Positions 3,345-38,942 of a DNA stretch of 64,000 bases are shown here, one piece after another. This DNA is from Escherichia coli (GTDB lineage: Bacteria; Pseudomonadota; Gammaproteobacteria; Enterobacterales; Enterobacteriaceae): assembly GCF_001677475.2 (NCBI RefSeq), contig NZ_CP015229.1; one strand, 5' to 3'. Below the pieces are notes generated by a model, which saw only the letters and a program-made list of their open reading frames with translations, did not search any database and was not told the DNA's origin. The translations under genes were made by a program, and so were the position numbers. The number at the start of each line of letters is the position of its first letter. Positions within the stretch are counted from its first letter, which is position 1.

Positions 3345-3758
3345 TCAGATTCCCTCCCAAACTATATATCCTTTGTCTCTTGCCCAACAAACAACTGTGT
3401 GGGCTGTATATGTGGATGTGAAGCCGCAATAAGAACATGACACTTCATACCGAGTATTGTAGATGTTAATGGGCTCGTTCTCCTTGTGTATGGGAGTGAC
3501 ATATTCCCAATCATTTGAATCATCATAATCATCAAGTTCAGGGTCTGTGCCGTGAACAACCGTATGTGGAATAAACAAATCTAGGCGCCCACACGAGAGA
3601 CAAGAGGTTCTGGCTCCTCTATCTTTAAGGAATTGAATAAATAATTTGGGCGAAATCTGTTGCAGAACCTGCAAATGCCCACGTTCATTATCATTAAGAG
3701 ACCTGTCTGCATATGGAAAATCATCAAATTTAAGAGGCTTCATATAAGGCATCTCCAA
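3345..3758 (-). CDS. hypothetical Cys-rich protein (two CxxC motifs, possible zinc ribbon), prophage cargo
   Basis: 137-aa ORF immediately downstream of int, overlapping the int 3' end and followed without gap by the 176-aa ORF; start may be an internal Met (about 3743). Confidence 0.55.
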   Translation of the reverse strand: MEMPYMKPLKFDDFPYADRSLNDNERGHLQVLQQISPKLFIQFLKDRGARTSCLSCGRLDLFIPHTVVHGTDPELDDYDDSNDWEYVTPIHKENEPINIYNTRYEVSCSYCGFTSTYTAHTVVCWARDKGYIVWEGI

Positions 3759-5083: not shown

Positions 5084-5178
5084 GGTGTGCACCTGAATAC
5101 TATATTGGTTATCAGTTGAGTACCACTTGACGCCACAAAAAGCCACAAATAGCACCAGATTGAATAGGTTATCACATC
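5084..5178. promoter_or_regulatory. lysis-lysogeny switch region (divergent Pc/Pe promoters and operator repeats)
   Basis: 95-bp gap between divergent C and cox; ggttatca direct repeats and a TTGACG -35-like hexamer. Confidence 0.5.
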
Positions 5179-5457
5179 ATGGCAAAAGTCCTGAACACAT
5201 ACGAACAAGCGGATTTTGAGCGTTTGGCGGCGTTCTACCCATACCGTGATGAGCATGGGTTACCTGTGCTTGAAGAAAGCCTGGAAGATTACGCGAAACG
5301 CACGAATCAAAGCATTCTTGCGGTAAGAAGGCAGGCCGACAGATCAGTAATCCCCGTCACCCAAGAAGGAAGAAACACAAAACGCAAAGTAAACCTTTTC
5401 GCAATATTCCTGAAAACCATCAGGAGCGCAGAGAAATACGTGCAGATGACAAAATAA
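5179..5457 (+). CDS. cox: Cox/Apl-like excisionase and transcriptional regulator
   Basis: 92-aa first gene of the early operon, divergent from C; size and position as P2 Cox. Confidence 0.7.
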   Translation: MAKVLNTYEQADFERLAAFYPYRDEHGLPVLEESLEDYAKRTNQSILAVRRQADRSVIPVTQEGRNTKRKVNLFAIFLKTIRSAEKYVQMTK

Positions 5458-5471
5458 CGAGGTGTAATTTT

Positions 5472-5810
5472 ATGCTGAAGCAACGCCATAATTTTCGTAC
5501 CGGAACGGAACGCCACGCTAACCGTTTCGCTACCAGTGCATCACGTAGTAACTCCCGCTACAGCCTGAGCGAAACACACGCTACACCTGATGGCCATCCC
5601 GTAAAACAAATTGGTGAACACACCTGGCTGATTGAGAAAGCTGGAATCGTGGTTCACAGATGCCAACGCAACCCATTTACCGGAAACCGCATTTTTGCTC
5701 TGAGCAACGGCGACACTCAGTTTGGACAGGATTTCACATTGTACGAAGCACTTCGCACGGTTGATCGTCTGCTTCGCGGGCAAAGTTTTATTAAACAGAC
5801 TGATTTATAA
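5472..5810 (+). CDS. hypothetical early protein
   Basis: 112-aa ORF in early operon. Confidence 0.5.
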   Translation: MLKQRHNFRTGTERHANRFATSASRSNSRYSLSETHATPDGHPVKQIGEHTWLIEKAGIVVHRCQRNPFTGNRIFALSNGDTQFGQDFTLYEALRTVDRLLRGQSFIKQTDL

Positions 5811-5820
5811 CAGGTGCGTT

Positions 5821-6099
5821 ATGACCAAAGAGCATGCACAAGGTGTATTTATCCGTTTTATTGATTTTCGCGGTGAACTGTTATTGCGCGCATCAGCTAT
5901 TGATGGAGTTGTCCCATCAGAAAAAAATGCAGCTACTTACGTTTATCTGAACGGCACGCGCCTGACCGTAGAACTTCCGTACCAGACTGTACACGGAATC
6001 ATTAGCGAAGCTGAAAAGGCACGTCAGGTTAATGGCAATGAACCCTATATCGAAATTATTTGCATGGATTCAGAAGCTGAAATCCAGAAAGCAGATTAA
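5821..6099 (+). CDS. hypothetical early protein
   Basis: 92-aa ORF with aggtg RBS upstream of ATG 5821. Confidence 0.5.
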   Translation: MTKEHAQGVFIRFIDFRGELLLRASAIDGVVPSEKNAATYVYLNGTRLTVELPYQTVHGIISEAEKARQVNGNEPYIEIICMDSEAEIQKAD

Positions 6100-6110
6100 A
6101 GGGTGTTGCA

Positions 6111-6353
6111 ATGGACAAAGAATATAAAACACTCATCAACAAAGCACTTGAGCGTTTTTATTTTCGCTTAAGCGCATCAGGCGTTCATGCTGAACGTGCA
6201 GCCCGTGACTCATTGACCAGGGCAATCCGGAGTCTGTATGACGTGGCTTTTTACGCTGATGATCTGGATGCACTTAACGAACTTTCCGAGCTGATCTGTG
6301 CCGCAGAATGCGGAGAACATATTGAACCGTATAAGCTGGGGAATATCGCATGA
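6111..6353 (+). CDS. hypothetical early protein
   Basis: 80-aa ORF, tightly spaced in early operon. Confidence 0.5.
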   Translation: MDKEYKTLINKALERFYFRLSASGVHAERAARDSLTRAIRSLYDVAFYADDLDALNELSELICAAECGEHIEPYKLGNIA

Positions 6354-6467
6354 GTATATTTATCTCATGGCTTGTTCTGATTATTTCGGTGGCCTGCGCC
6401 ATTGGGATTATGCGAATTATTAATTCAGTGAAAAAGATCGAGCGTTTTTTCTCTGATGAATAACGAT
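6351..6467 (+). CDS. possible small membrane peptide (38 aa, MSIFISWLVLIISVACAIGIMRII...)
   Basis: Short ORF overlapping the previous stop (ATGA); single hydrophobic helix; below the ORF-track size cut-off. Confidence 0.35.
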
Positions 6468-11681: not shown

Positions 11682-12641
11682 ATGAAAATTTGTATCGACG
11701 ACGGCTCCACCAACATCAAGCTGGCATGGACTGAGAACGGCGAACGCCGCAACGCCATCAGCCCGAACAGCTTCAAGTCGGAATGGTCTGCGCCGTTCGG
11801 TGGCACGCAGCCCGCGAACTACATGCTTGATGGCGTGCGCTATGGTTTTGATCCGGTCAGCGATCGCTTTGTCCAGACGACCGACACGCAATACCAGTAC
11901 AGCGATGTGAATGTCATTGCCATTCATCACGCGCTGGTCAAATCAGGCATCACGCCACAGGAGGTGGATGTGGTTGTCACCCTGCCACTGAGCGAGTATT
12001 TCGACACAAACGCACAGCCGGACATGGCCAACATCAACCGCAAAAAAGCGAACGTTATGCGCCCGGTGGAGTACCAGAACGGCGAAGCATTCACTATCCG
12101 TAACGTGCGGGTTATGCCTGAATCCATTCCGGCTGGCTTTAAGGCACTGGCTGACATGAGTCCGTTTGAATCCCTGCTGATTGTAGATTTGGGCGGAACC
12201 ACGCTGGATGTGGCAAAGGTTCAGGGGCAACTGGCAGGTATCAGCCAGGTGTTTTGCGATCCACACGTAGGCGTTTCTCTGATGGCCGATGCCGTACTGT
12301 CGGTGATGGCCACTAACGGTATGCGCACCAGTCACCACATCGCCAATACCATTATCGAACATCGCCATAATGAAGCCTGGCTGCGCCAGCACATCCACAA
12401 TGACGCGCATTACGCCAGCCTGATGGAGGTTATTCGTGAAAAGGAAGAAACACTGAAACAACGCGTGATCCGCGCGCTGGCGGGTTTTTCGGGTTACGGG
12501 CGGGTGATGGTTGTCGGTGGAGGGGCGGAGATTGTGGCACCCGCTATCCGCGAAGCCTGCGGAGTTCATGCGACTTTCATCGCGGACGGGGTGCCACAGT
12601 TTGCTCTGGTTAATGGGCTGTACGCAATGGACAAGGAGTAA
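11682..12641 (+). CDS. parM: actin-like segregation ATPase, ParM/StbA family
   Basis: 319 aa; motifs IDDGSTNIKL, ISPNSFK, VMPESIPAG, DLGGTTLD, GGGAE, VNGLY parallel plasmid R1 ParM as recalled. Confidence 0.8.
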   Translation: MKICIDDGSTNIKLAWTENGERRNAISPNSFKSEWSAPFGGTQPANYMLDGVRYGFDPVSDRFVQTTDTQYQYSDVNVIAIHHALVKSGITPQEVDVVVTLPLSEYFDTNAQPDMANINRKKANVMRPVEYQNGEAFTIRNVRVMPESIPAGFKALADMSPFESLLIVDLGGTTLDVAKVQGQLAGISQVFCDPHVGVSLMADAVLSVMATNGMRTSHHIANTIIEHRHNEAWLRQHIHNDAHYASLMEVIREKEETLKQRVIRALAGFSGYGRVMVVGGGAEIVAPAIREACGVHATFIADGVPQFALVNGLYAMDKE

Positions 12642-12645
12642 ACCA

Positions 12646-12957
12646 ATGACGACACCAACCAGACGGATAAGTTTCTATCTGAAGCCTGCGGCCGTCAAGA
12701 ACGAAAGCGAAGCATGCGCCTGGCTGGACAGCCTTACACCAGAAGCCCGCAAAAGCGGCCAACGCGTGGCTTTTCTGGCCGGGCTGGCACTTCTGAAAAT
12801 GAATCCGGCAGAGGCTTACCGACTGGCTGCATGGGCTGACGATGAGGCGTTATCAGTGACACAAACCAGGACAGAATGCCCCGCGTCACAGCCAGTATCA
12901 ACCGCACAGATAACCAGTCAGATGGCCGGAAATATCCGGGCGTTATTTCCCGAATAA
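12646..12957 (+). CDS. parR: ParR/StbB-like partition adaptor (DNA-binding)
   Basis: 103 aa directly after parM; RRISFYLKP...LDSLTPEARKS...AFLAGLALL and C-terminal NIRALFPE resemble R1 ParR as recalled. Confidence 0.65.
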   Translation: MTTPTRRISFYLKPAAVKNESEACAWLDSLTPEARKSGQRVAFLAGLALLKMNPAEAYRLAAWADDEALSVTQTRTECPASQPVSTAQITSQMAGNIRALFPE

Positions 12958-12962
12958 CACAA

Positions 12963-12986
12963 CATCAGGGCGCATCCGCCCTGATG
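12963..12986 (+). terminator. hairpin after parR (catcagggcg-catc-cgccctgatg)
   Basis: 10-bp perfect stem; weak T tract, so terminator function is uncertain. Confidence 0.35.
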
Positions 12987-13020
12987 ACTTTAATCCGGGA
13001 ACATAAACAAGGGGGACACA

Positions 13021-13356
13021 ATGCAACACATTGACAGAGAAAAAGCGCAGCGACTGATTGAGCGAATGGAAGCGCTGGCGAAAGAAGAAAATGTCAACAT
13101 CCAAAAAATAGCTGAATGTGGCCAGATAGTTCTTCGTCGTGAAAAAGACATCAAGCAACTGATGTCTGGCGAAATCAGCAAAACATGGACTTCAGGCAAG
13201 AAGACGATTTATTGCAGCTTCTGCAATAAATCCCAGCACGAAGTCATAAAGGTGATTGCCGGACCGTCTGTTTACATCTGCAATGAGTGCGTGGATTTGT
13301 GCAATGAAATTATCAGAAGAGAAGTGACAGACCATGAAGAAAAAACGCATGAATGA
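13021..13356 (+). CDS. stand-alone ClpX zinc-binding-domain (ZBD) homologue with unique N-terminal region
   Basis: 111 aa; segment [39 protein letters not shown] closely matches the E. coli ClpX N-terminal C4 zinc-finger as recalled; no AAA+ module follows. Confidence 0.75.
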
Positions 13357-13418
13357 CGAATTTGACGGCTTTTAATTTTATCGGGGCACACTGTCTCCCC
13401 CCGCACGAGGAAAACACG

Positions 13419-13943
13419 ATGAAAAAATACGAATACATGCTAATGAAAGAAGCACTGCGGGCTGGTCTGGCTCCCTGTCCTGTATCCGTAGAAGCTGTTG
13501 TTGGGAACACGATTTTCCGAACGCTGCGAAATCGCGTATCCGTGAAGATGATTCACCAACCACCCAAATCTACCAGCATGATCTATCTGCCGCTGCCCGA
13601 GGCTATCAAACTTATGCGTTCGCTGAAATTTGCGATTTGGATGCAGACACAACTCAACAAAGCGGTGCAAAACACCTTCGTTAAGAAACTGATGCCGGAG
13701 CTTGCTGCCAGATGTGCAAAATGTACCAGACCCGCACTTCAATTTGATCTGTCATTGATTCAACAAGCTACGGAGGCAGAACTGTACCGCCTGTCACCTC
13801 TCCATGATGTTCACACGGAAGCCTCAGAAATGTTCCGGCTCATGTTTCAATTTAATTTTGCCGTTCGACGCACACGCGTTCAGGTCAATCGCATGATGCA
13901 GGCGCAGGAAGAGCTGACGCAACACAAAGGAGGCAACCAGTGA
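13419..13943 (+). CDS. hypothetical protein (cargo, gene A-proximal hotspot)
   Basis: 174-aa ORF from ATG 13419 with RBS; stop overlaps next start. Confidence 0.55.
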   Translation: MKKYEYMLMKEALRAGLAPCPVSVEAVVGNTIFRTLRNRVSVKMIHQPPKSTSMIYLPLPEAIKLMRSLKFAIWMQTQLNKAVQNTFVKKLMPELAARCAKCTRPALQFDLSLIQQATEAELYRLSPLHDVHTEASEMFRLMFQFNFAVRRTRVQVNRMMQAQEELTQHKGGNQ

Positions 13944-14464
13944 GCAAGATTGACTATCAGGCATTACGCGAACGCTATTCACCTGCGCCAGTACCGAAAT
14001 GCCCTATTTGCGGCGAGGAAATGTCAATTCAGCGAATATCTGGAGCACAGGTTGTTTATGCCTGCTCCGGTTATGGTGATGATGGAGATTTCAAAATTGG
14101 TCGAACTCTTGCCGACGAACATTATGAAAAATCGCGCGTAACAGTGTTGGATGTCGGGGATCCTGAAGTATTGGCGCTACTTGATTGGCTGGAAACTAAA
14201 GACAACCGAATCGCTGAACTGGAAAAAATCGCCACTGACTATGCACTTAAATTCCAGAAAGCACAGGACGCATTAAAGCATGCCGCTTTGCTGCATAGCC
14301 GGACGGCGCAACAAACAAATAATTTTGCAGTATCGCTTCCGGACATAAGCGAATATTTCATTAATGACGTATTTCAGCCCTTGCGATACGAGCGGGATGT
14401 TGAAAGAGCCATCATAAAGGCTGGCGGAAAAGCATTGTGGCAGGAGAAACACGACGACAGATAA
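13940..14464 (+). CDS. hypothetical protein with N-terminal CxxC...C zinc-ribbon-like motif
   Basis: 174-aa ORF ATGA-coupled to previous gene; CPICGEEM...YACSGYG. Confidence 0.55.
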   Translation: MSKIDYQALRERYSPAPVPKCPICGEEMSIQRISGAQVVYACSGYGDDGDFKIGRTLADEHYEKSRVTVLDVGDPEVLALLDWLETKDNRIAELEKIATDYALKFQKAQDALKHAALLHSRTAQQTNNFAVSLPDISEYFINDVFQPLRYERDVERAIIKAGGKALWQEKHDDR

Positions 14465-15041
14465 AAATAACACCTGATCTCCCTCAAACCAGGGCGATAA
14501 TCGCGCATCGCCCTGCTGCACAATAGTGCACAAATTTGCACAATTTTTTTGAACGACTTTTTGCCCTTCCGGCCCGCGTGGCGGCTGGATCCGTCAAGGA
14601 TCCGTGCGTGCACAAAAAAACGCGTTTTTTCTGCGCGCAGGTGACGGGGGAACAGCCCGCGTTTCAGGGGGTAAATAGCGTTCCCTTAACGATGTCGCAG
14701 CGACACGACAGAATGGCCGTATCGCTCACGCTGAGCGTGAAAAATACGTGAGGGATTCTGATTTGATGGGGTGAAAGGTAAGGCCGTCAAAATCGCACTG
14801 AGGCGGCGAGAACATGCAGTCAGCGCGGTGGGATTGTGTAGAGTCTGGCCGTCGATGATAGCGATAAGTCGGAAGATGTCGTGAAATTATCTGATTGATA
14901 CGGGAGCTGGAGAGCCGGGGCATAAATTTTTTATGCCCCGGCGAAGCAGCAGACAAGCGAAGCGCGTCAGTGATGCGGCACCTTGCCGACCACACTTCAT
15001 AAGTGCAAAATACGAGCAAAGAAATCAATGGAGGCTGTTTT

Positions 15042-15566
15042 ATGGTCATTAATTACAAGCAGTTACGAGAAAAACGAGAGCAGGTAAAGGAAAGTTTTCG
15101 CCGCAATGAAGATCTGACCCCGCTTGTACACCTTGCCCAGGGAATTGTTGATGCTTATGAAATCTCTCTGGAGCTGCCATCACAGACATGGACGGATAGC
15201 GACGGTAATCGCCAGCATTACGTTTCATGCGGACTGGAAACAACTGAAGGGTTTCGCAGAATGCCTTTATCTCAGATTCCTGCCGCTACCCCCAAAGCAA
15301 GGGGCGGCAATGATGAGCGAAAACTGATTTTCAGCATTGAGACAGTGGTTGACGACACACCTGGCGAAGTCGCGTTCGTGCATACTCCTCTTTCGATCGC
15401 AATGTATAACGATGAAATACAGGTTCGCGTTAATAATAATATCGTGCCACTTAAAGAAGGTAATTCACCATACACCACCGTTTGTGAAGCCATTCAATAT
15501 TACGTTCTCTCTGAAATTGATAATCTCAAGCCTGACGGCACCCAGAAAATGGTTCAACTCTGGTAA
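15042..15566 (+). CDS. hypothetical protein between cos region and portal gene
   Basis: 174-aa ORF convergent with Q; the ORF-track alternative start is 15003. Confidence 0.5.
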   Translation: MVINYKQLREKREQVKESFRRNEDLTPLVHLAQGIVDAYEISLELPSQTWTDSDGNRQHYVSCGLETTEGFRRMPLSQIPAATPKARGGNDERKLIFSIETVVDDTPGEVAFVHTPLSIAMYNDEIQVRVNNNIVPLKEGNSPYTTVCEAIQYYVLSEIDNLKPDGTQKMVQLW

Positions 15567-28367: not shown

Positions 28368-28808
28368 ATGAATTACATATATTCCGCGACTACAAACTCT
28401 TTCTATCCGCTGGAGATGAAAGAGGATTACACTCAAGCTGACTCATGGCCAGATGATGCTGTTGAAGTTGATGAGCAAGTGTATATTGAGTTTTCCGGAT
28501 TACCGCCGAAAGGAAAAATCCGTATCGCTGGAGAAAATGGTTTTCCTGCATGGTCTGAAATTCCACCACCAACACATGAGGAACAAATTGCTGCAGCCGA
28601 ATTGGAGAAGCAGCAATTGATTAATCAGGCCAACGATTATATGAACAGTAAACAATGGCCTGGTAAAGCGGCTATTGGTCGTCTGAAAGGTGAGGAACTG
28701 GCGCAATATAATTTGTGGCTGGATTATCTGGACGCACTGGAACTGGTTGATACCTCCAGTGCTCCAGATATTGAATGGCCTACGCCTCCGGCAGTTCAGG
28801 CCAGATGA
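28368..28808 (+). CDS. G: tail fibre assembly chaperone (P2 gpG-like)
   Basis: 146 aa directly after H. Confidence 0.8.
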   Translation: MNYIYSATTNSFYPLEMKEDYTQADSWPDDAVEVDEQVYIEFSGLPPKGKIRIAGENGFPAWSEIPPPTHEEQIAAAELEKQQLINQANDYMNSKQWPGKAAIGRLKGEELAQYNLWLDYLDALELVDTSSAPDIEWPTPPAVQAR

Positions 28809-29376
28809 CATCCGGCGCGGTGCTGGTATCTGTTGCCGTCACCGCGTCAATGTAATCCAGCACAGCGTTAAGTCTGGTTGTTTCTGCCTGCGTCAGTTTA
28901 CGTCCGGCCTGTAATTTCAGCTGAATCAGACTAATGGAAGCCATTGCTGCATCAATCAGTGACTGGCGCTGTGCTTCTGCCGTTTCTACTGCGGCACCGT
29001 GTTGTGCCTCAGTATCTGTCACCCATTTCTCACCATCCCATTTATCATATGGCGTTAACGGTGAAAGCGTGACATAACCGTTTTTGATGGCACCGATATA
29101 ATCCACTGTAACAGCAGCACCATTTTCGATTGAGTAAACAGTCTCATTGCGATGGTCTTCTTCATGGCTCCATCCCTTACCTGTAAATACTGCCACTCTT
29201 CCCGGAATGTTTTTGCCAGGGTCAATTCCAGTGGAACAGGCGGGCATACTTACGCCAGTATTAATATATTCATCAGACCAGCCCGTATACTCAGATGTTT
29301 CAGCATCATAATAAAAACAACGCATATCGCCCGGCACTGTAGCCAGTCCATTTTCATCAAAAATTGGGGTCATCAT
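28780..29376 (-). CDS. alternative tail fibre assembly chaperone (tfa'), convergent with G
   Basis: 198-aa minus-strand ORF; C-terminus ...IWPELPEA parallels G C-terminus ...IEWPTPPA. Confidence 0.75.
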   Translation of the reverse strand: MMTPIFDENGLATVPGDMRCFYYDAETSEYTGWSDEYINTGVSMPACSTGIDPGKNIPGRVAVFTGKGWSHEEDHRNETVYSIENGAAVTVDYIGAIKNGYVTLSPLTPYDKWDGEKWVTDTEAQHGAAVETAEAQRQSLIDAAMASISLIQLKLQAGRKLTQAETTRLNAVLDYIDAVTATDTSTAPDVIWPELPEA

Positions 29377-29832
29377 TTAGCCCTCACCAGAAAGTTAAAT
29401 GCAATATTTCGCGGTCTGACGGCAACAAAATTCACACCATCACCCACAGAGTTACTGGTGAAATTAAATCGTGAAAATCCTGGCTGATTTCCGGCGATAC
29501 CATCATGAAAATTAATTGCGTGGCCCGCACCATCGCCTATATTCCCGGCAAACTGAGAAAAGTTTGTAGCTGCCTGCCAGCTTAATAATTCGCGACCACC
29601 GTCTACACCTCGCCCGTCATCCCAGATACGAATGAAATCACCGCGGGCTTCAGGTAATACCAGCGAAGGAAACACTTTCGCCAGCACAGGGTAATCAGTG
29701 GCAGAAAATTTCGCCCCGTTGAACTTCAAAAACACCATACCGGACCAGCTGTCGATTACAGTATTTGGCATTGCCGCGGAGGGCCAGAAGAACGGAACGC
29801 CAATAGCTGGAGTACCTTCTCCCAAACCAACG
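29373..29832 (-). CDS. alternative tail-fibre C-terminal variable segment (promoterless; fuses to H after inversion)
   Basis: Minus-strand ORF reading ...NVGLGEGTPAI... from the hix-like site, paralleling H ...[11 protein letters not shown]. Confidence 0.65.
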
Positions 29833-29840
29833 TTTAAGAA
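29815..29840. repeat. hix/gix-like crossover site (inverted copy)
   Basis: Reverse complement carries ttggtttgggagaag. Confidence 0.6.
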
Positions 29841-29897
29841 AATGCAGAGATTACGGCTAACTGGCATCATCCCCGGTTTTTATTCAGGGGATCCATC

Positions 29898-30497
29898 ATG
29901 CTTATTGGCTATGTCCGCGTATCAACAAATGACCAGAATACAGAATTGCAGCGTAACGCGCTGGAGTGCGCAGGATGTGAACTGATTTTTGAAGATAAAA
30001 TCAGCGGAACGAAATCAGCCAGACCGGGATTGAAAAAACTACTCAGAACGCTATCAGAAGGAGATACGCTGGTTGTCTGGAAGCTGGACAGACTGGGCAG
30101 AAGTATGAAACACCTGATCACGCTTATTGAGGAATTGCGGGAAAAAGGGGTTAATTTCCGTAGTCTGACGGACAGCATCGACACATCAACACCCATGGGG
30201 CGTTTCTTTTTTCACGTCATGGGGGCTTTAGCCGAAATGGAACGTGAATTAATTGTAGAGCGTACACTGGCCGGACTGGCAGCAGCACGCGCACAAGGAC
30301 GCATTGGCGGACGTCGCCCGAAGTTGACAAAAGAACAACACGAGCAAATAGCGAGGCTGATTAAAAACGGTCATGACAGGAAACAACTGGCGATCATTTA
30401 CGACATCGGCATATCGACGATTTATCGCTATCACCCTGCAGGCGATATACAGGCTGAAGAAACAACCAGGCAGACTCAGGAAAATGAAAACCGCTAA
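29898..30497 (+). CDS. pin: serine DNA invertase, Hin/Gin/Pin/Cin family
   Basis: 199 aa; N-terminal GYVRVSTNDQ catalytic-serine motif and C-terminal HTH; adjacent to invertible tail-fibre segment. Confidence 0.9.
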   Translation: MLIGYVRVSTNDQNTELQRNALECAGCELIFEDKISGTKSARPGLKKLLRTLSEGDTLVVWKLDRLGRSMKHLITLIEELREKGVNFRSLTDSIDTSTPMGRFFFHVMGALAEMERELIVERTLAGLAAARAQGRIGGRRPKLTKEQHEQIARLIKNGHDRKQLAIIYDIGISTIYRYHPAGDIQAEETTRQTQENENR

Positions 30498-30523: not shown

Positions 30524-31018
30524 TCAAAACAGCCCTTTAACGGAGCTGGCCGCGCTGTTAAGGGATGATGTGACCTTATCTTTGAAGCCGGACAGCATAT
30601 CACTGAATGATGAGGATTGCAGGCGCTCCCGCAAATCCTCATCACAGCGTTCAAGAGTCAGTGAAAATTCTATCTTTTTCGCCTTACCGTAGCGATCAAA
30701 CTCGGAACGGGTCGTATTCGTTTCAGTCAGTACATACATGCCGTAAATTTGCCCGACACCATCAATCAGAGGCCAGGGGCGTCCTGTATATGCCTGCGTG
30801 GTCAGCAACGAAAGCGACACTTCGCCACCTGTAATTTCAGGATAAAGCACGCCGGAAAGCACAATGCGATCATCACCTGCACCGATATACTGCCAGCTTG
30901 CTGAACGGTTAACGCGTTCATTTTTCACATGCCGCCAGCTTTTGTTTTGCTGTAACTGCTGATGCGGCAGTGTGCGCAGCTCAAAAACAAACATGCCGTA
31001 GATCATCATCATGACCAT
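30524..31018 (-). CDS. U: tail protein, P2 gpU-like
   Basis: 164 aa; last gene of the minus-strand FI-FII-E-T-U block. Confidence 0.7.
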   Translation of the reverse strand: MVMMMIYGMFVFELRTLPHQQLQQNKSWRHVKNERVNRSASWQYIGAGDDRIVLSGVLYPEITGGEVSLSLLTTQAYTGRPWPLIDGVGQIYGMYVLTETNTTRSEFDRYGKAKKIEFSLTLERCDEDLRERLQSSSFSDMLSGFKDKVTSSLNSAASSVKGLF

Positions 31019-31024
31019 GACTCC

Positions 31025-33868
31025 TCAATCTTTATCGTAAAAACTGCCACGTCCGGCACGGGCGCGCCGTTCCATCTCTGCCCTGACCATTTCACCGACC
31101 AGTTTCGCCAGTTCGCGGGGATTCTGCGTAACAACGTTATGCAGATGAACATGAATTTCACCGCCAAATCCGGAGACAGCAGGCTCCCGATTACGGGAAG
31201 CTGCAGGAACTGATGCCACTGGCGATCGTATGGCCTCCGCCACCGGGCGGGAGCTGGCCGCAACAACAGGGACCAGCGCCGGAGGCAGCGGAGCCGGGAC
31301 TACGGGTGTGATATTAATTGCGGGGGCAGGCTTACTGACCTGCGCAATCTTCCGCTCCTGCCACTCCCCACGAACAGCCAGTGCGCGGGGCAGGTTCTTA
31401 AAGACAATATCGCCGGGGCCAATGCGTTTTTTCGTCTCATCAACCAGCTTACCTGTGTTATCAGCAATTTTGCTGAGTCTGCGTAGCGTCCCGGTATTGC
31501 TGTCTGTGAGCGGTTTGTTGTCTTTGGGTTTATCACCTCCGGTGCCATTGCCATTTTCCACAGGCTTCGGCGGATTGATTTTCGCAAGGTCCCCCTGAAG
31601 CAAGGCAACCTTGTCCTGAAGAATGGCCGCACGCTGTGCGTCTTCGATTTTCTTGCGCGCCTTTTCCGCTTCATCCGGAAGGACGCCAAGTTTTTCAAGT
31701 ATCCACGCCAGCGTATCCAGTAGCATTTTTGCAGGTGTCAGAACAAGCTGTAACGCACCGCCAAGAACGTTACCGAATATCTCGCCAGCACTGGTACATT
31801 TATCCAGCGTTTCCTTGCTGGACTCCATCGGTGACAGCAGCGATTTAAACCAGTTAAACACCTGGCTGATCCCGCTTCCGATTGCGTCAAAAACAGGACC
31901 AAACCGTTCAAAGGTTTCGCGCAACGGGGTCAGCCTTTCCATAATCCCGCTGAACACCCCGGCATAAAACGCCTTGATGGGTTCCCAGTATTTCCAGATG
32001 AGAACCGCCGCAGCCACAAACGCGGCAACAATCAATCCGACCGGACTGAACAGCGCCCCGATAGCGCCACCCAGCAACGAGATGGAACCTGTTACCATTC
32101 CCCATAGTGCTGGCAGCACCCTGACGACATTCATTGATCCGGTCAGGAGAGAAAAACCAAGACGTAACGTGGCCAGTTTCCCGTGAAGCACGCCAATAAC
32201 CAGCGACAACGAGCCAATCGTTGCAGTCATTGCCAGCAACGCACCGCCTGCTATCAGTAGCTGGCGCGTCAGTGCCGGATGGGCCTGCGCCAGCGCCGTC
32301 ACCCTTGATACCACCCGCGTGAGCCACTGCGTGACAGAACGCAGCGGGCCGTCAATCAGATCTGCAATGCGGATGCGCAACCCTTCCCATGCACTGCCGA
32401 GTGATTTCAGATCGCCATCAAGGTTGTTGGCCATAACCTTTGCCGTGCGTTCAGCCTCACCGCGTGCGCCTTCAAGTTCTTTTCTCAGTTTGGGTAAGGA
32501 ACCGTCACCTGCCGCATCAACGAGGGCCATAAACGATGTGAAAGCCTCTTCCCCGGCGATGTCCTTAAAGAAGGATACCCGGTCAACTTCCCCGTATTTG
32601 CGGGTGGCTTTATAAAGGTCGGCCAGCACATCCTCCATCGGGCGCATTTTGCCGTTCGCGTCAGAAACTGCCACACCAAGCTCTTTCAGCGCCTCTGCTG
32701 CTGCCTTTGGCGGTGATGCCAGACGAGCCAGGCTGGCACGCATTGCCGTCCCGGCATCACTCCCTCTGATACCCATATTCGCCAGCACGCCCGCCATCGC
32801 TGCGGCCTGCTCCAGCGATATTCCCAGCTTACCCGCCACCGGACCTGCATATTTCATGGTTTCGCCCAGTGCGCGAAGGTCAGTGTTGGTACGGGTAAAC
32901 GCTGCGGTGAGTGTGTCACCAACCCGGTCCATCTGGTCAGCAGAAAGGCCGAACTGCGTCAGGATATTTGAGCCAATATCCGCCGTCTCGCCGAGATCCA
33001 TACCGCCAGCCGTTGCCATGCTCAACACGCCGGGAAGCGCAGCCTGAATGGCCTGCGGTGTGAAGCCAGCCATTGCAAGAAATGCCTGTCCACTGGCGGC
33101 ATCGCCTGCGGTGAACTGCGTTTCAGAGCCAAGTTTTAACGCCTGCTCACGCAGCGCCTTAAACTGTGGGCTGTTCTGGTCGATTCGCGTCAGTGCCTGA
33201 ACGCGGGACATCTCTTTCCCGAACCCGATCGCAGGCTGCAAAAAACGCCCGGCAGCATAGCCGCCAGCCGCTGCCGCACCAATTGCCAGCGCACCACCTG
33301 TTTTCAGTTTTCCAGCAGTTTCCTGCGCGCGCGAATACCGCTCACGCGCCCGCGTTACACGCGCAAGCGTCTGCCGTTCGCGTTCAAGCTGGTTGTTGTA
33401 CTGTTCGGTGCGTCTGATGGCCTGCTGGATGGTGTTATCGCTGCCTGTCAGGGAAATGCCGTGGCGTTTCAGCTCTCCGCCAAGCTCCCGCATTTTCTGA
33501 ATTTCCCGTGTGCGCGATTCATTCAGGCGTTCAAGCCGGGTGCTTAACTGCTGCATCAGCTTTTGTTGTTTTTCGCTGAGCACTGTACCCGTGCGTTGTA
33601 ACTGATTAAGGGCGTTAAGCTGGCGTCGTGCTTTCACGATGCCCGCATCCGCTTTACTGACAGCGTCACGGGCGCGCTCAAACGAACGCGCCTGACGCTC
33701 GAGATTTTTGATCGCCCCCTGCGTTCGCTGGATGGAGTCACCAAACTGCCCCATCAGGCGGCGGGCGTTTTCGGCAGGCCGGGTCAGCCTGTCAACGGCG
33801 CTGAAAGCGACCCGGATATCAAGAGTCTTCATTGTCTGCATTCCCGCTGCGAAGTGCCGCCCGCTCAC
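31025..33868 (-). CDS. T: tail tape measure protein, P2 gpT-like
   Basis: 947 aa, helical/Gly-Ala-rich; synteny. Confidence 0.85.
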   Translation of the reverse strand: MSGRHFAAGMQTMKTLDIRVAFSAVDRLTRPAENARRLMGQFGDSIQRTQGAIKNLERQARSFERARDAVSKADAGIVKARRQLNALNQLQRTGTVLSEKQQKLMQQLSTRLERLNESRTREIQKMRELGGELKRHGISLTGSDNTIQQAIRRTEQYNNQLERERQTLARVTRARERYSRAQETAGKLKTGGALAIGAAAAGGYAAGRFLQPAIGFGKEMSRVQALTRIDQNSPQFKALREQALKLGSETQFTAGDAASGQAFLAMAGFTPQAIQAALPGVLSMATAGGMDLGETADIGSNILTQFGLSADQMDRVGDTLTAAFTRTNTDLRALGETMKYAGPVAGKLGISLEQAAAMAGVLANMGIRGSDAGTAMRASLARLASPPKAAAEALKELGVAVSDANGKMRPMEDVLADLYKATRKYGEVDRVSFFKDIAGEEAFTSFMALVDAAGDGSLPKLRKELEGARGEAERTAKVMANNLDGDLKSLGSAWEGLRIRIADLIDGPLRSVTQWLTRVVSRVTALAQAHPALTRQLLIAGGALLAMTATIGSLSLVIGVLHGKLATLRLGFSLLTGSMNVVRVLPALWGMVTGSISLLGGAIGALFSPVGLIVAAFVAAAVLIWKYWEPIKAFYAGVFSGIMERLTPLRETFERFGPVFDAIGSGISQVFNWFKSLLSPMESSKETLDKCTSAGEIFGNVLGGALQLVLTPAKMLLDTLAWILEKLGVLPDEAEKARKKIEDAQRAAILQDKVALLQGDLAKINPPKPVENGNGTGGDKPKDNKPLTDSNTGTLRRLSKIADNTGKLVDETKKRIGPGDIVFKNLPRALAVRGEWQERKIAQVSKPAPAINITPVVPAPLPPALVPVVAASSRPVAEAIRSPVASVPAASRNREPAVSGFGGEIHVHLHNVVTQNPRELAKLVGEMVRAEMERRARAGRGSFYDKD

Positions 33869-34357
33869 GCCAGCTAACCACTTCGCCGGGCGTCATCATG
33901 AAGATTTCGGCGGGCGACCAGTTAAAAATGGCGGCGATATCTGCCACCAGATCTTCGATGTGCTCAAAGCACACCAGGGTAATTACGCTGCCGTCTCCTG
34001 CACGCTCTTCGCGCCAGAGTCTGGCTCGCTCATAAAATTTACAGCCACAGCGCACAACTGAATAAAATCGCGTGACGACATTTTTTTAATCATCACTTCA
34101 TCCAGTCGTGGCGAGGTCACGCGAGGCAACAGCGTAAACATGGTATCCGCTTTCAGATTCAGCACATCAGACAGCGACAGACCACGCAGGGATCCAGCCT
34201 GCTCAATAGCCCCGGTGATCTCCACATACGTGATTTTTTCGCCACCACGCTCAATTGGTCGGGTCAGTTTTACGCCACGTTCGACAGCCATATCCTCACC
34301 TGCCGTCACATCATCCGCCACGGTGTTATTCCGGGTTTCAGTATCGATGTCTTTCAT
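33819..34357 (-). CDS. tail assembly chaperone E+E' (predicted -1 programmed frameshift product)
   Basis: A7 slippery run (plus-strand ttttttt at 34081-34087) inside E; the -1 frame stays open to 33819 and overlaps the T start. Confidence 0.55.
33983..34357 (-). CDS. E: tail assembly chaperone, P2 gpE-like
   Basis: 124-aa ORF between tube and tape measure genes. Confidence 0.7.
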   Translation of the reverse strand: MKDIDTETRNNTVADDVTAGEDMAVERGVKLTRPIERGGEKITYVEITGAIEQAGSLRGLSLSDVLNLKADTMFTLLPRVTSPRLDEVMIKKMSSRDFIQLCAVAVNFMSEPDSGAKSVQETAA

Positions 34358-34412
34358 CAGTTGTCTCCTTTTCAGTCAGAGGCGACGCACTGCGCCGCCT
34401 GCATATTACTTA

Positions 34413-34925
34413 TCAGCCAAGCCCAAGCGCGGAACGGATACGGTCAGGCACAATGTCCTTGCCGTCCTTCCGGTAGATGTGGTTCAACAGGTCGATTTCC
34501 CACAGCGGGCGATCGTTAACGCTCAGCTTGTAGTAGGTGTTTTTGACAGCGTAAGTGTGTGATGTGGCTTCGCCCTGTTTGGCTTCCCCCATATCAATTT
34601 CCGTCACACGCCCACGCATCTCGATTTCATACAGATCGCTTTCTGCATCGGTGTAGTATTCACCCGCAAAACGCAGCAGCGTGCCGTCAATCGTGCCGCC
34701 ATATTTAAGGAACAGCGCACGAACAGCTCCCCCCATGACAAAACTCGCATCAAGCGCGGAGTCGTCCAGACCGAGATCAATACTTACCGCCCCCATCATG
34801 CCACCACCACGATAGCTGTCGGTTTTGCGCGTCAGTTTGGGCGGCGTGACGGATGTCACTTTACCCACTTCGTTTTCACCATCCACAAACAACGTAAAAA
34901 AGCGAAGATGTTTTGGTACAGCCAT
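34413..34925 (-). CDS. FII: tail tube protein, P2 gpFII-like
   Basis: 170 aa; synteny. Confidence 0.85.
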   Translation of the reverse strand: MAVPKHLRFFTLFVDGENEVGKVTSVTPPKLTRKTDSYRGGGMMGAVSIDLGLDDSALDASFVMGGAVRALFLKYGGTIDGTLLRFAGEYYTDAESDLYEIEMRGRVTEIDMGEAKQGEATSHTYAVKNTYYKLSVNDRPLWEIDLLNHIYRKDGKDIVPDRIRSALGLG

Positions 34926-36109
34926 CAGGCACCTCCCAGCACCGCAAATGCGGGACCAAAGAATTCATCAGTAAACGTCTGGTAAAGCTCCATGTCTTCC
35001 AGCGGGGGAACAGGCGTATATTTGTAGCGAATACGCACACGTCCCTGACGTAAATTCGTGGTGCCGTTATCCACCACGTCATACCAGCACTCCGCGCCAA
35101 TCAGTTTCCCGGCAGTAACCAGCGAATCCAGTTTTGCCCTGATGGCACTGATAACATCCTTCACGTTCGCAGGCGTCAGTGGACTGTCGATGGTTTCAAA
35201 CTGCGCTTCCGCAATTGAATCAGCCAGCACCTGTGCGGTTCGGGTATACACCTCAAAGATGTAGGCGTTCGTTTCCGGTGTGCGGTTGCCCCAGAAGCGG
35301 AACCCGTTGCGACGAATAATGGTCGTGATTTCTTTGTTGTTGAGGCTGTTGGCATCGCTGTCTTCGGCCTGCAACGACCAGAACACATGCCTCGACATCC
35401 CCAGCACATTTTTAACCGGAACGTTGGACAGTGATTTGTGCCATCCCTGCTCATGGTCAATGTACGCACGAAGGCCGCACGCATAGGCAGGCGCGGGGAA
35501 CGTTTCGTTTTTGCCACTTTTCGGGTTGTAGGCGATGAAGTCTGGCCATAAGAGCATCACCTCACGTTCGTTGAATTTCTGGCGGTAGGTAATTGCCTCG
35601 GCCATCGTGTTACAGCCATGACATGAGGCATACACAAACGCGCGCAGTTTACCCGCAATCACGCACAGGGATTTTGTCACCGCCTCCGTGTCCAGCTCCG
35701 GCGCGGCCAGAATACGCGGACGGTATCCGATGCTTTCATCCTGCTCTGCAACAAGCAGCGCATACATCCCCGTATAGCTGCCGTCAGATTCAGAACCACC
35801 GATAACCAGTTGATCCTGCGTTTTTCCGTCTTCTTCTTTGTGTTCAGCCACGCGAACGACGATCACCTTTGTGCTCACCTGGTCTGCGATGGCCTTAAGC
35901 GCACGATAAAGCGTCCCCGTTGTTCCGCATTTTCCCAGCACGTCATTGACGCGGGTCAGCAGTGTGGGCTTGTTCAGCGGGAACAGCTCCGCGTCCGCAT
36001 CATCTGCCGTTGCCACGATACCGATAACACTGGAATCAACATCATTAATCGCTGTTACCAGGTCGGTACTTTCCGTAACACGGGCACCATGAAAACGAGT
36101 TTCACTCAT
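34925..36109 (-). CDS. FI: contractile tail sheath protein, P2 gpFI-like
   Basis: 394 aa; motifs GWHKSLSNV, IRRNGFRFWGNRT, YTRTAQV, YTPVPPLE match recalled P2 FI. Confidence 0.9.
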   Translation of the reverse strand: MSETRFHGARVTESTDLVTAINDVDSSVIGIVATADDADAELFPLNKPTLLTRVNDVLGKCGTTGTLYRALKAIADQVSTKVIVVRVAEHKEEDGKTQDQLVIGGSESDGSYTGMYALLVAEQDESIGYRPRILAAPELDTEAVTKSLCVIAGKLRAFVYASCHGCNTMAEAITYRQKFNEREVMLLWPDFIAYNPKSGKNETFPAPAYACGLRAYIDHEQGWHKSLSNVPVKNVLGMSRHVFWSLQAEDSDANSLNNKEITTIIRRNGFRFWGNRTPETNAYIFEVYTRTAQVLADSIAEAQFETIDSPLTPANVKDVISAIRAKLDSLVTAGKLIGAECWYDVVDNGTTNLRQGRVRIRYKYTPVPPLEDMELYQTFTDEFFGPAFAVLGGA

Positions 36110-36266: not shown

Positions 36267-37376
36267 ATGACCGACACCACCATGCAATTGCTCAGTCAGG
36301 GCACAGACCCCGTGAAAATGCCGGATTTTGATATTCTCGCGGAGGGTAAAACGCTGTCAGGCGTGGCAGAGCGCCTGATGAGCCTGTCACTGACCGACAA
36401 CCGGGGATTTGAGGCGGACCAGCTCACCATCACGCTGGATGATGCGGATGGTCAGTTGCAGCTACCGCCACGGGGCGTGCGCCTGACGGTTCTCATTGGC
36501 TGGAAAGGAGAACCGCTGACAGAAAAAGGCACTTACATTGTTGATGAAATCGCTCACGAAGGACCGCCGGACAGGCTGACTGTTTCAGCCAGAAGCGCAG
36601 ATTTTCGGGATGAATTTAACGTTAAACGTGAGGTGTCCTGGCATGATGTGACCGTTGAGCGTGTGGTATCCGCCATCGCTCATCGGTACGGTCTGAAACC
36701 GCAAATCAGCGAAATGCTGATGGATATCGAAATCGACCACGCCGACCAGACCGAAGAAAGCGACATGTCCTTCCTTACGCGCATGGCGGAAATGCTGGGC
36801 GCAATCACCACGGTAAAAAGCGGCAATCTGTTATTCATCATGCCAGGTGGTGGCGTGAACGCACAGGGCCAGCCGTTGCCATCGTTCGCCATCACACGCA
36901 GCAGCGGCGATCGCCATCAGTTCCGCATTGCTGACCGCGAGGCGTATACGGGGGTGCGCGCCTACTGGCTTGATCTTAACTATGGGAAAAAGAAAAAAGT
37001 CAGCGTGAAACGCCGCAAACCACCCAAACCGAAAAAGGAGAAAAGCAGCAGCCGCGAAGGTGACTATATGGAAGGTGCGGAAGGCAACGTGTTTGTGTTA
37101 CGCAAGACTTATCAGAACGAGCAGGCAGCAAGACGCGCAGCGGCGGCAAAGTGGCAGCAGCTACAACGCGGAGCCGCATCATTTTCCATCACGCTGGCAC
37201 GTGGACGCGCAGAACTCTACCCCGAAATGCATGGCACAGTAACAGGATTTAAAAGCGAGATTGATAATCAGGACTGGATTATTGCAAAAGCCGAGCACAC
37301 CATTGATAACAGCGGCTTTACCACGCAGCTTGAGCTTGAGGCAAAAATCCCGGAATGGATAGCAGAAACAGAGTGA
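36267..37376 (+). CDS. D: tail protein / late control protein, P2 gpD-like
   Basis: 369 aa; MSLSLTDNRGFEADQLTITLDD..., DHADQTEESDMSFLTR, GFTTQLELE match recalled P2 gpD. Confidence 0.9.
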   Translation: MTDTTMQLLSQGTDPVKMPDFDILAEGKTLSGVAERLMSLSLTDNRGFEADQLTITLDDADGQLQLPPRGVRLTVLIGWKGEPLTEKGTYIVDEIAHEGPPDRLTVSARSADFRDEFNVKREVSWHDVTVERVVSAIAHRYGLKPQISEMLMDIEIDHADQTEESDMSFLTRMAEMLGAITTVKSGNLLFIMPGGGVNAQGQPLPSFAITRSSGDRHQFRIADREAYTGVRAYWLDLNYGKKKKVSVKRRKPPKPKKEKSSSREGDYMEGAEGNVFVLRKTYQNEQAARRAAAAKWQQLQRGAASFSITLARGRAELYPEMHGTVTGFKSEIDNQDWIIAKAEHTIDNSGFTTQLELEAKIPEWIAETE

Positions 37377-37502
37377 ACAACCTCGACGTTTTATTTAATA
37401 TACAAAAGCCTTCTGGACACGGTAAGGCAAGAACAAGGATAGAAGATCCTTTACAGTCAGAGTTACAGGTTATACCTGTAAGCAAAAACAAAGGCATATA
37501 TT

Positions 37503-38261
37503 ATGTTCAGTTTGTTTTCGTTAACTGCCGGAGCAAATGTGCGCTGGCATGATTTACCTGGTCAGGGTATTCCTGTTGTTTTTATTCATGGACTTGGCTG
37601 TTCCTCTTCTTATGAATATCCACGGGTTGTTGCAGATCCTGTATTTGGTGGACAACGAGCGATATTGATAGATCTCCCTGGATATGGATTCAGTGATAAG
37701 CCTAAAGGATTCGATTACAGCATATCCCATCAAGCTAAGGTTGTTATTGAAGTAGTAGAAACCTTAAATCTCTCACAGTTCCATATTTATGGTCACAGTA
37801 TGGGGGGAAGTATTGCGATTGAAGTAGCCAGACAACTACATGAGAGAACAAGAAAGCTTGTGGTTTCTGAGCCTAATTTTCACTCTGGTGGAGGTACCTA
37901 TAGCCGTAAGATAATAGAGAAGCCAGAAGCAGAGTTTATTTCGCATATATATAATGAATTACTGGAGTGTGAAACATCCCCATGGAAAGGTGAACTCCAG
38001 AATGCAGCCCCATGGGCAATATGGCGAGGAGCCAAAAGTCTGGTTGATGGAACCACTCCATCATGGCGAGATATATTCCTTAATCTGTCCTGTTCACGAA
38101 CACTAATTTTTGGCGAACAATCATTGCCAGATAATGATTTCCAGTATATAAAAGAATCAGGAATATCTGTTGCAATAGTGCCAAACGCCGGACACTCCAT
38201 GTCATGGGAAAACCCATCAGCACTGGCCGAAATTTTACACACAGAATTTTATAAAGAGTAA
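37503..38261 (+). CDS. alpha/beta-hydrolase fold protein (esterase/lipase-type), prophage cargo
   Basis: 252 aa; oxyanion HGLG, nucleophile elbow GHSMGG, C-terminal His (NAGHS); AT-rich island between D and ogr. Confidence 0.7.
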   Translation: MFSLFSLTAGANVRWHDLPGQGIPVVFIHGLGCSSSYEYPRVVADPVFGGQRAILIDLPGYGFSDKPKGFDYSISHQAKVVIEVVETLNLSQFHIYGHSMGGSIAIEVARQLHERTRKLVVSEPNFHSGGGTYSRKIIEKPEAEFISHIYNELLECETSPWKGELQNAAPWAIWRGAKSLVDGTTPSWRDIFLNLSCSRTLIFGEQSLPDNDFQYIKESGISVAIVPNAGHSMSWENPSALAEILHTEFYKE

Positions 38262-38621
38262 AATTGCTCATATATAAATGTTGTTCCATCAGTATCATAT
38301 TATCAAAGGGCAGGAGGTAAATTTATCTTCTGCCATTTCACTCAAATCAGGCGATTTGATAGCACGCATTTTATGAGATGCTTGAAACTTATAAATATAT
38401 AAGAACGTCTTGTTATCAAAATATATAAGCACAGAAAGCAAACACTTTCCCATAATTACTTTGTTAATTTTTTGCCTGATAATAAATGGCATAATAAACA
38501 GTATCAGAGAGTATTTTTATTAATAATTAAACACACATTCCTCAATCTGACATGACTGTTAGTTGGCATATTTACAAATACAATTTAAAATAACGACAGC
38601 AAAACGTTAAGGGAGGTCGCT

Positions 38622-38882
38622 ATGTTCCGTTGTCCGCTTTGTGGCGCATCTGCCCGTATCCGCACCAGTCGTCCAGAAAATGATTCAAACACCGTACGGC
38701 AAAAGTATTACCAATGTAACAACCTGGAATGCGGCGTATGCTTCTCAACACTGGAAGCTTTCCATAAATTCACATCGAAACACGCCTCCGGCGCTCACTC
38801 TTCAGAAAGTATCCCGTGGCATGAACTGCCAGCTTCCCACAGAGGAAACAATCAGATGAGTTTGCCCTTACCTCAAAATTAA
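38622..38882 (+). CDS. ogr: late gene transcription activator, Ogr/Delta zinc-finger family
   Basis: MFRCPLCGASARIRTSR...YYQCNNLECGVCF resembles recalled P2 Ogr (CPLC...C..C). Confidence 0.85.
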   Translation: MFRCPLCGASARIRTSRPENDSNTVRQKYYQCNNLECGVCFSTLEAFHKFTSKHASGAHSSESIPWHELPASHRGNNQMSLPLPQN

Positions 38883-38942
38883 CAGGCAGAATTGCCGGAG
38901 TAACAAAAAAGCGATAGATTACGCGCGGGTGCCTTTCGGCTG

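Follow-up and report, generated by a model that had tools for sequence, protein, structure and literature searches.

P2-like prophages with nearly identical core genes differ at hotspots, where variable, AT-rich and non-essential inserts stand among the core genes and the cargo changes from phage to phage. A third hotspot of P2, described in 2024, spans the D-ogr-int-C region (10.1101/2024.10.15.618418). The locus considered here is an insert of the same kind, and its exact slot is the gap between the tail gene D and the late-gene activator gene ogr. It lies in a 64,000-nucleotide stretch of Escherichia coli DNA (NCBI RefSeq assembly GCF_001677475.2, contig NZ_CP015229.1), referred to as the window, in which a P2-like prophage integrated between btuC (1641-2621) and ihfA (39521-39820) carries a gene for an alpha/beta-fold serine hydrolase. 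The pheT-ihfA DNA that flanks the prophage is 98.7% identical to E. coli genomes.

The hydrolase gene can be compared with neaT of the CFT073 prophage phi-b0847, which is likewise a rare, strongly AT-rich, single-gene enzyme moron of a P2-like prophage. neaT encodes an acyltransferase with relatives scattered over unrelated phages, and it acts on host fitness rather than on phage growth (PMC3573123). The two differ in enzyme class and in slot (Z/fun for neaT). A second comparison is with mobile insertion cassettes and transporter insertion sequences (ISs), in which IS ends enclose passenger genes and no transposase, and with the IS481 family, since cassettes found in sister prophages share both their ends and the length of their target duplication with complete IS481-family copies. 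Unlike mobile insertion cassettes, all of them occupy one target in one phage lineage.

The D-ogr gap is a hypervariable slot that takes at least 18 different AT-rich cargos, and the hydrolase gene is an accessory (moron) cargo that is absent from P2 and from most near-identical prophages. It is read here, with moderate confidence, as a single-gene moron whose product, probably an esterase that acts on small molecules, would be kept for the benefit of the lysogen. Literature searches returned no description of the D-ogr slot anatomy, its IS-type ends or the hydrolase cargo, and nothing relevant on IS-bounded cassettes in P2.

The D-ogr slot and its cargos

In the P2 reference genome, D ends at 23954 and ogr starts at 24036, and the 81-bp spacer between them contains the annotated ogr promoter and no gene. 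In the window a 1245-bp insert (37377-38621) fills the gap between the end of gpD at 37376 and the start of ogr at 38622, and its sole gene is an open reading frame (ORF) of 252 amino acids on the plus strand (37503-38261). The GC content in 300-nt windows is 0.40-0.44 over this ORF and 0.29-0.36 over the spacer behind it; the neighbouring tail genes have 0.52-0.60, and the DNA that begins with ogr has 0.46-0.53. The first-pass annotation had described the ORF, AT-rich flanks and a spacer of about 360 bp before ogr, and had taken the insert for cargo foreign to the P2 backbone. Each of these points holds: the ORF is present as described, the insert stands at 0.29-0.44 GC against the 0.52-0.60 of the backbone, the spacer measures exactly 360 bp, and P2, having no gene at this site, offers no structural or regulatory homologue. 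A search of 50,697 deposited phage records at the DNA and protein levels found no close relative, only a 29% match on an unannotated faecal contig.

Among viral contigs in IMG/VR, 80 encode a D protein 99-100% identical to that of the window, and 74 loci are left once the six that end before ogr are set aside. The D-ogr spacer is empty in 38 of these (38-42 bp). The other 36 carry inserts of 1,009-3,814 bp, in 18 length classes with different genes, in either orientation and with a GC content of 0.33-0.43; a single locus has the hydrolase. The same D/ogr lineage is present in 1,201 of 5,426 complete E. coli genomes, with a contiguous junction in 720 and a junction split at the same point in the rest. 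Five of the 5,426 genomes carry the hydrolase cassette, at two attachment sites and only between D and ogr; given the two attachment sites, the cassette travels with the phage.

RefSeq annotates the cargo of this slot as PIN-domain, YecA-family, DUF2971, AAA-ATPase and hypothetical proteins. Some sister cargos match defence models (a PifA-like KAP NTPase, 1.1e-64; PDC-S06, 2e-277; PDC-S31/DUF2971, 3.7e-27; a PRTase beside a DprA-like protein), and most have no match. Defence-type cargo in sister prophages raises the possibility that the hydrolase is itself a single-gene anti-phage system, which would destroy a molecule needed by the incoming phage or damage the cell in abortive infection. P2-like hotspots are indeed rich in defence systems (PMC9122126; 10.64898/2026.02.27.708500), among them 'DprA-PRTase' (10.1101/2024.10.15.618418), but they also hold partition systems, toxins and neaT (PMC9122126; PMC3573123). 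The hydrolase itself has no match among the 5,027 models of PADLOC-DB v2.0.0 at E values up to 1, its cassette lacks a sensor or partner gene, and no single-gene defence based on an alpha/beta-hydrolase was found in the literature. A defensive role is therefore considered unlikely, and the distribution of homologues, described below, bears on it further.

The features of the locus are as follows.

36282-37376, plus strand: tail gene D (PHROG 52 tail protein, 3.8e-164), the conserved left flank of the slot
From 36135, plus strand: open frame of D, 99-100% identical in the 80 IMG/VR loci and annotated in relatives as 'late control D / VgrG-Pvc8 family'
37377-37502, plus strand: 126-bp upstream flank of the cassette, where sister cassettes have a left IS-type arm, here decayed
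37503-38261, plus strand: alpha/beta-fold serine hydrolase gene, 252 amino acids (oxyanion motif H29-G30, nucleophile S99, probable acid E123, H231)
37587-37592, 37797-37799, 37869-37871 and 38193-38195, plus strand: hydrolase codons for HG, S99, E123 and H231, respectively
38262-38621: AT-rich non-coding spacer of 360 bp (GC about 0.29-0.36) from the hydrolase gene to ogr
38309-38334, plus strand: terminator-like hairpin 48 nt past the hydrolase stop codon, followed by a weak U-tract
38533-38587, plus strand: putative decayed right arm of the cassette, homologous to sister right arms that match the IS481-family right inverted repeat
38563-38591, plus strand: predicted ogr promoter (TTGGCA-17 nt-TAAAAT) inside the right arm, 30 nt before the ogr start codon
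38622-38882, plus strand: ogr-type zinc-finger late-gene activator, 86 amino acids (NCBIfam PRK09678, 3.4e-11; PHROG 603), the conserved right flank

Relatives annotate the ogr-type gene as ogr/Delta-like. The annotation of D is inconsistent within the lineage: some RefSeq relatives (e.g. L001, E. coli NCTC9022, 5147-6000) carry a shortened D of 266 amino acids labelled 'VgrG/Pvc8 family', together with an overlapping pseudogene fragment on the opposite strand, and other records give the full 'late control D'.

The hydrolase

The hydrolase ORF is a real gene and not a chance reading frame, as it matches Pfam families (Abhydrolase_1, 3.9e-20; Abhydrolase_6, 1.3e-16, residues 25-243; Hydrolase_4, 6.2e-09), has 482 homologues and shows an omega of 0.11-0.19 in most allele pairs. 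It is assigned to PHROG 789, 'esterase/lipase'. The signature recognized at first pass, composed of HGLG (H29-G30), GHSMGG (S99) and a C-terminal histidine (H231), is present in full, and alignment of 33 homologues extends the invariant set to H29, G30, G97-H-S99-M-G101-G102, E123-P-N, G129-G-G and H231. The HG oxyanion motif lies at the end of a predicted strand at 21-28 and the nucleophile elbow G-x-S-x-G at the end of another at 93-98, in agreement with the placement of these motifs after beta3 and beta5 in the fold. Pfam matches, invariant motifs and predicted strands thus agree in placing the protein among alpha/beta-hydrolases with a Ser-His signature. An AlphaFold2 model built from the 33 homologues (predicted local distance difference test score, pLDDT, 93.7; predicted template modelling score, pTM, 0.92) likewise has the three-dimensional alpha/beta-hydrolase fold, with the usual strand order and a helical cap at about 130-195.

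The acid of the catalytic triad probably departs from the usual arrangement. The site after strand beta7, where an aspartate is expected, is Ser207, and the nearby Asp210 is not conserved, being replaced in Klebsiella-type sequences. Glu123 is invariant and directly follows the predicted strand beta6 (116-122). For these reasons the triad is probably Ser99-His231-Glu123, with the acid after beta6, which is its placement in DhaA-type enzymes. The resemblance to that clade does not extend to the nucleophile. Haloalkane dehalogenases, epoxide hydrolases, Cif and fluoroacetate dehalogenases use an aspartate, whereas the elbow residue is serine in all 33 sequences, and dehalogenase-clade NCBIfam models give the hydrolase 50-55 bits against cut-offs of 241-466.

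The first-pass annotation had proposed a search for the hydrolase subfamily. Membership of the alpha/beta-hydrolase superfamily stands, and no subfamily emerged: every named NCBIfam family scored (MenH, PcaD, RutD, BioH, YbfF-type esterase, haloalkane dehalogenase, the BphD/MhpC C-C hydrolases and macrolide esterases) fell far below its cut-off, with matches that span only residues ~10-130. Small alpha/beta-fold carboxylesterases of the TtEst, EaEST and 1va4 type are known as 'family V' lipolytic enzymes. The hydrolase shares only 16-23% identity with TtEst (4uhc, Thermogutta), EaEST (5h3h, Exiguobacterium) and the aryl esterase of P. fluorescens (1va4); its cap and beta7 region cannot be aligned with them by sequence, and its acid is probably the glutamate after beta6 rather than an aspartate after beta7. 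A signal peptide was considered and rejected, as the N-terminus is predicted to form the usual beta-hairpin of the fold and has no charged n-region. The protein is probably cytoplasmic.

To judge by its sequence, the gene is intact, selectively maintained and of a small esterase type. This speaks against a neutral passenger that recombination caught in the slot and that is of no use to phage or host. Such a passenger might well be as rare as this gene (5 of 5,426 genomes, 1 of 74 viral loci), sit between decayed cassette ends and show the omega of 0.43 found between the window and NCTC9022, a value drawn from 20 differences. Yet no prophage-borne allele has lost the ORF or any of the catalytic motifs. 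Omega is 0.11-0.19 in three of the four prophage allele pairs, which set an allele against the window or NCTC9022; the most distant pair has 0.11 over a synonymous divergence (dS) of 0.23, and comparisons with relatives outside P2 give 0.06-0.15. The terminator-like hairpin behind the gene has also been kept through compensatory changes. Neutral carriage is accordingly ranked last among the explanations and is thought most improbable.

Expression signals and the spacer

The upstream flank (37377-37502) is 96-100% identical in E. coli relatives with the hydrolase cassette, and a weak ribosome-binding site, AAAGG, lies 9-13 nt before the hydrolase ATG. Downstream, the hairpin at 38309-38334 has a folding energy of -16.3 kcal/mol (z -6.3), and its homologue in NCTC9022 has -15.5 kcal/mol (z -5.7) with a different stem sequence and the same structure. 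Retention of the fold despite the change in stem sequence fits a terminator, and the hairpin is probably the end of the hydrolase transcription unit; a simple scan for terminators did not call it, its T-run criterion being unsatisfied. Transcription of the hydrolase would then end at its own hairpin, and read-through from D late in infection is also possible.

Such read-through is the core of another explanation, in which the hydrolase is a lytic-cycle helper or counter-defence enzyme, transcribed late together with D, that removes a host immune signal or some hindering molecule. The gene is co-oriented with D and ogr; the stretch from the D stop codon to the hydrolase ORF yielded no terminator call, and no separate consensus promoter was found. 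In P2, moreover, the late F-operon transcript runs through D into ogr, with a terminator 'for ogr transcript and F operon' behind ogr. Against this, the hydrolase is missing from 99% of near-identical prophages and is thus not needed for phage growth, the slot accepts cargo in either orientation, and homologues occur on chromosomes and transposons outside any phage. Anti_RM and Anti_CRISPR are the only types listed in a survey of 1,511 P2 elements, 28 of which have them (10.64898/2026.02.27.708500). A lytic role is regarded as very unlikely.

The 360-bp spacer that precedes ogr is 78% identical to that of E. coli relatives, compared with 95-98% for the flanks, 95-97% for ogr and a dS of 0.05-0.08 for the hydrolase ORF. 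The divergence could reflect a recombination break at the 3' end of the ORF, or unusually fast change. A second gene in the spacer, suggested by the sole ORF there (38295-38492, 65 residues, minus strand), was rejected, as the frame contains stop codons in all relatives. No site in the region looks more like a promoter than TTGGCA-17-TAAAAT (38563-38591), near the end of the spacer, with 10 of 12 matches; it aligns both with the TTGGAG...TAGAAT of sister cassettes and with the annotated -10 element of the P2 ogr promoter.

IS481-type boundaries of the sister cassettes

Sequence comparison identifies the slot boundaries of sister cassettes as the inverted-repeat ends of an IS481-family element, accompanied by a duplication of 7 bp. 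Empty sites have the layout D stop codon, GCA, ACTTAGA, ATAGCGGCAGCACCACGTTAAGGGAGGTCGCT, ATG. Occupied sites have the layout D stop codon, GCA, ACTTAGA, TGCATTAGCTCAGAC, cargo, GTCTGAGCTAGTACA, ACTTAGA, ATAGCGG... The direct repeat ACTTAGA brackets the inverted-repeat ends and is retained at 5-7 of 7 positions in most sister cassettes. A hidden Markov model (HMM) of the right arms matches left arms almost exclusively on the opposite strand, in collinear blocks. Scanning viral contigs for the end motif led to a complete element (L107) with a 346-aa transposase that scores 283.6 bits against the IS481 NCBIfam cut-off of 224. Its 35-nt inverted repeats are 83% complementary and match the cassette ends of locus L064 with z values of 5.5 and 8.8 relative to shuffled sequences, and an HMM of IS right ends matches the cassette ends of L065, L042 and L069 (E 8e-5 to 2e-3). 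Nine further full-length IS copies with readable ends, on unrelated contigs, end in TGTATTAG...CTAGTACA; four of these nine are flanked by perfect 7-bp duplications of varied sequence.

The sister right arm carries TTGGAG, and TAGAAT is completed together with the target. Since TTGGAG/TAGAAT aligns with the -10 element of P2 ogr, the right arm would supply the ogr promoter in occupied phages. The left arm is taken as non-coding on account of stop codons and non-triplet indels across cassettes; a coding origin had been considered because the motif stands in frame in unrelated tail genes (L101-L103, L106), and was rejected. ERIC/REP-type repeats, Ogr-binding dyads and invertase crossover sites were also rejected as sources of the arms, as their sequences do not match and IS481 ends fit directly. 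No tested cassette has a copy outside the slot in the 5,426 E. coli genomes, where the PDC-S06 cassette occurs once, in the slot. Repeated transposition is no likelier than a single old insertion with later exchange of its interior.

The corresponding ends of the hydrolase cassette are degraded. The right arm (38533-38587) is the top match in the 64-kb window to a right-arm HMM built from the other cassettes with the hydrolase cassette left out; over the IS-derived part this match is weak (E 0.11), and it reaches 7e-14 once the 32 nt common to empty sites are included. HMMs of complete IS ends match nowhere in the cassette, the right arm included, and the left flank (37377-37502) is not recognized by HMMs of sister left arms or of IS left ends. 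The direct repeat agrees at three of seven positions (ACCTCGA and ATTTAAA), the arms are complementary at 13 of their first 20 nt, and no other copies of the arms were found in the window.

Three further observations concern this IS family. In a distant P2-like phage whose D is 49% identical (L105, 1441-1700; L104, 2780-2990), about 250 bp of cargo-less, palindromic IS481-type ends lie between the cargo gene of the Z/fun slot and the tail-fibre assembly gene G, so the same family has left remnants at a second P2 hotspot. On its phage contig, the complete element (L107, 4600-6520; transposase 5415-6455) has tail gene E on one side and T on the other, and it adjoins two small overlapping ORFs that resemble a BrnT/BrnA toxin-antitoxin pair. 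The left flank of this element repeats 14 nt of the element's own right end.

Relatives and origin of the gene

Homologues of about 60% identity are chromosomal genes of Enterobacter hormaechei and Klebsiella michiganensis, with host-like GC contents of 0.54 and 0.62. They are syntenic, adjoining a GhoT/OrtT-type gene near an aldehyde dehydrogenase. Contexts are varied for the homologues of 71-79% identity. In Salmonella they adjoin the resolvase of a Tn3-type transposon on contigs and occupy another site on large plasmids. In Enterobacter sp. 638 the homologue lies where a non-P2 myovirus prophage ends, the Yersinia and Lelliottia homologues have integrases as neighbours, and that of Citrobacter freundii has a chromosomal site. 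More distant homologues (42%) on Vibrio plasmids form an operon of GNAT, hydrolase and ABM-monooxygenase genes with overlapping stop and start codons. Similarity to homologues elsewhere ends at the ends of the ORF, and the cassette flanks are not shared.

In Lelliottia amnigena (L017, 1220-5686) the 75% homologue is found at the edge of an integrase island encoding proteins with CTD6 and MC2 domains, which belong to conflict systems. The Enterobacter sp. 638 homologue has the same chromosomal neighbourhood, after a prophage.

From these relationships we infer that the gene was captured from a family resident on Enterobacter and Klebsiella chromosomes, and its drop in GC content to 0.40 suggests long residence in AT-rich cassettes. 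Gene neighbours give no lead to the function: the contexts vary (Tn3-type transposon, prophage end, integrase islands, chromosomal sites) and share no common partner. The variety of mobile and chromosomal contexts fits a general small-molecule enzyme repeatedly taken up by mobile elements. On the question of defence the homologues point both ways: the Lelliottia gene next to the CTD6 and MC2 island favours it, and the conserved syntenic gene in Enterobacter and Klebsiella is unusual for a defence gene.

Function

The first-pass annotation had offered lysogenic conversion or defence as possible roles. The favoured explanation here is a role in host physiology, supported by the syntenic chromosomal homologues, the Vibrio operon and the absence of a PADLOC match. 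The most likely function is that of a cytoplasmic enzyme (esterase, thioesterase or lactonase) of use to the lysogen. The predicted enzyme would act in the cytoplasm and hydrolyse a small molecule (an ester, thioester or lactone), and the phage would keep it as a help to the lysogen, in detoxification or metabolism, and not for virion assembly or phage regulation.

Several points weigh against this account. A promoter scan found no consensus sigma-70 promoter on the plus strand of 37377-37502 from which a lysogen might transcribe the gene. The closest NCBIfam equivalogs give 66 bits against a curated cut-off of 307 and 60 bits against 209, and sequence alignment to solved enzymes covers the N-terminal half alone. 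The 71-79% relatives stand at the edges of mobile elements, one of them beside a conflict-system island, and the slot's own PifA-like, PDC-S06, PDC-S31 and PRTase plus DprA-like cargos make defence plausible by association. The IS-end ancestry of the hydrolase cassette itself is deduced from its position and a weak similarity, given the weak right arm, the unrecognized left flank and the degraded repeats.

A bolder synthesis would treat the slot as the domesticated interior of an IS481-family element whose right end drives ogr, with transposase-less cargos still exchanged or mobilized in trans, and the hydrolase as an uncatalogued class of anti-phage or anti-defence enzyme. Taken together, this is a distinctly unlikely proposition.

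Other features of the prophage and its surroundings

A hok/sok-type locus (38927-39213; Hok ORF 39073-39213) lies between ogr and the right attachment site. At 48.4 bits, its sok match in Rfam stays under the gathering score (59). P2 lacks a hok-like ORF; among the 74 related viral loci, 69 have one behind ogr, as do the E. coli relatives found at other attachment sites. The only other Rfam family matched between 36000 and 40000 is the small RNA STnc540 (39427-39579, minus strand; 42.8 bits, gathering score 38), which overlaps the 3' end of ihfA and the stretch right behind it, just outside the prophage.

Relative to D, the tail block FI-FII-E-T-U (30524-36109) is inverted, being encoded by the minus strand, whereas in P2 the genes from FI to D form one operon. 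It adjoins a serine invertase gene (29898-30497) and apparent alternative tail-fibre segments (28780-29870), and E. coli relatives share the arrangement.

Two further regions carry putative cargo. The gap between btuC and the integrase gene (2814-3758), a cargo position described in a 2026 survey of P2 and P4 elements (10.64898/2026.02.27.708500), encodes one protein of 176 aa, a coiled coil with a hydrophobic helix at its C-terminus, and another of 137 aa, whose cysteine pairs suggest a zinc ribbon; PADLOC returned only weak coiled-coil matches. The A-to-Q hotspot (11682-15566) holds about six ORFs, including an actin-like protein (PRTRC_D/ParM-type, weak) and a ClpX-type zinc finger protein, and none of its ORFs matches PADLOC.

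Significance

The hydrolase gene adds a new and rare cargo to a known type of phage hotspot. Beyond what the first-pass annotation contained, the analysis adds the hypervariable D-ogr slot, the IS481-derived boundaries of the sister cassettes and the probable Glu123 acid. Of wider interest is a by-product, the slot's anatomy together with its long tail of rare cargos. The 7-bp repeat, the IS481-type ends and an ogr promoter provided by the right end amount to a simple recipe for collecting its cargos. Some 40-50% of slot copies hold an insert, and most cargos are rare. This D/ogr lineage alone accounts for P2-like prophages in about one-fifth of complete E. coli genomes, and variable slots of P2-like prophages are a proven source of new immune systems. 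The hydrolase is a candidate lysogen-benefit or defence enzyme. If defensive, it would represent a new enzyme class for phage immunity; if metabolic, it would be a further reminder that hotspots also carry cargo unrelated to defence.

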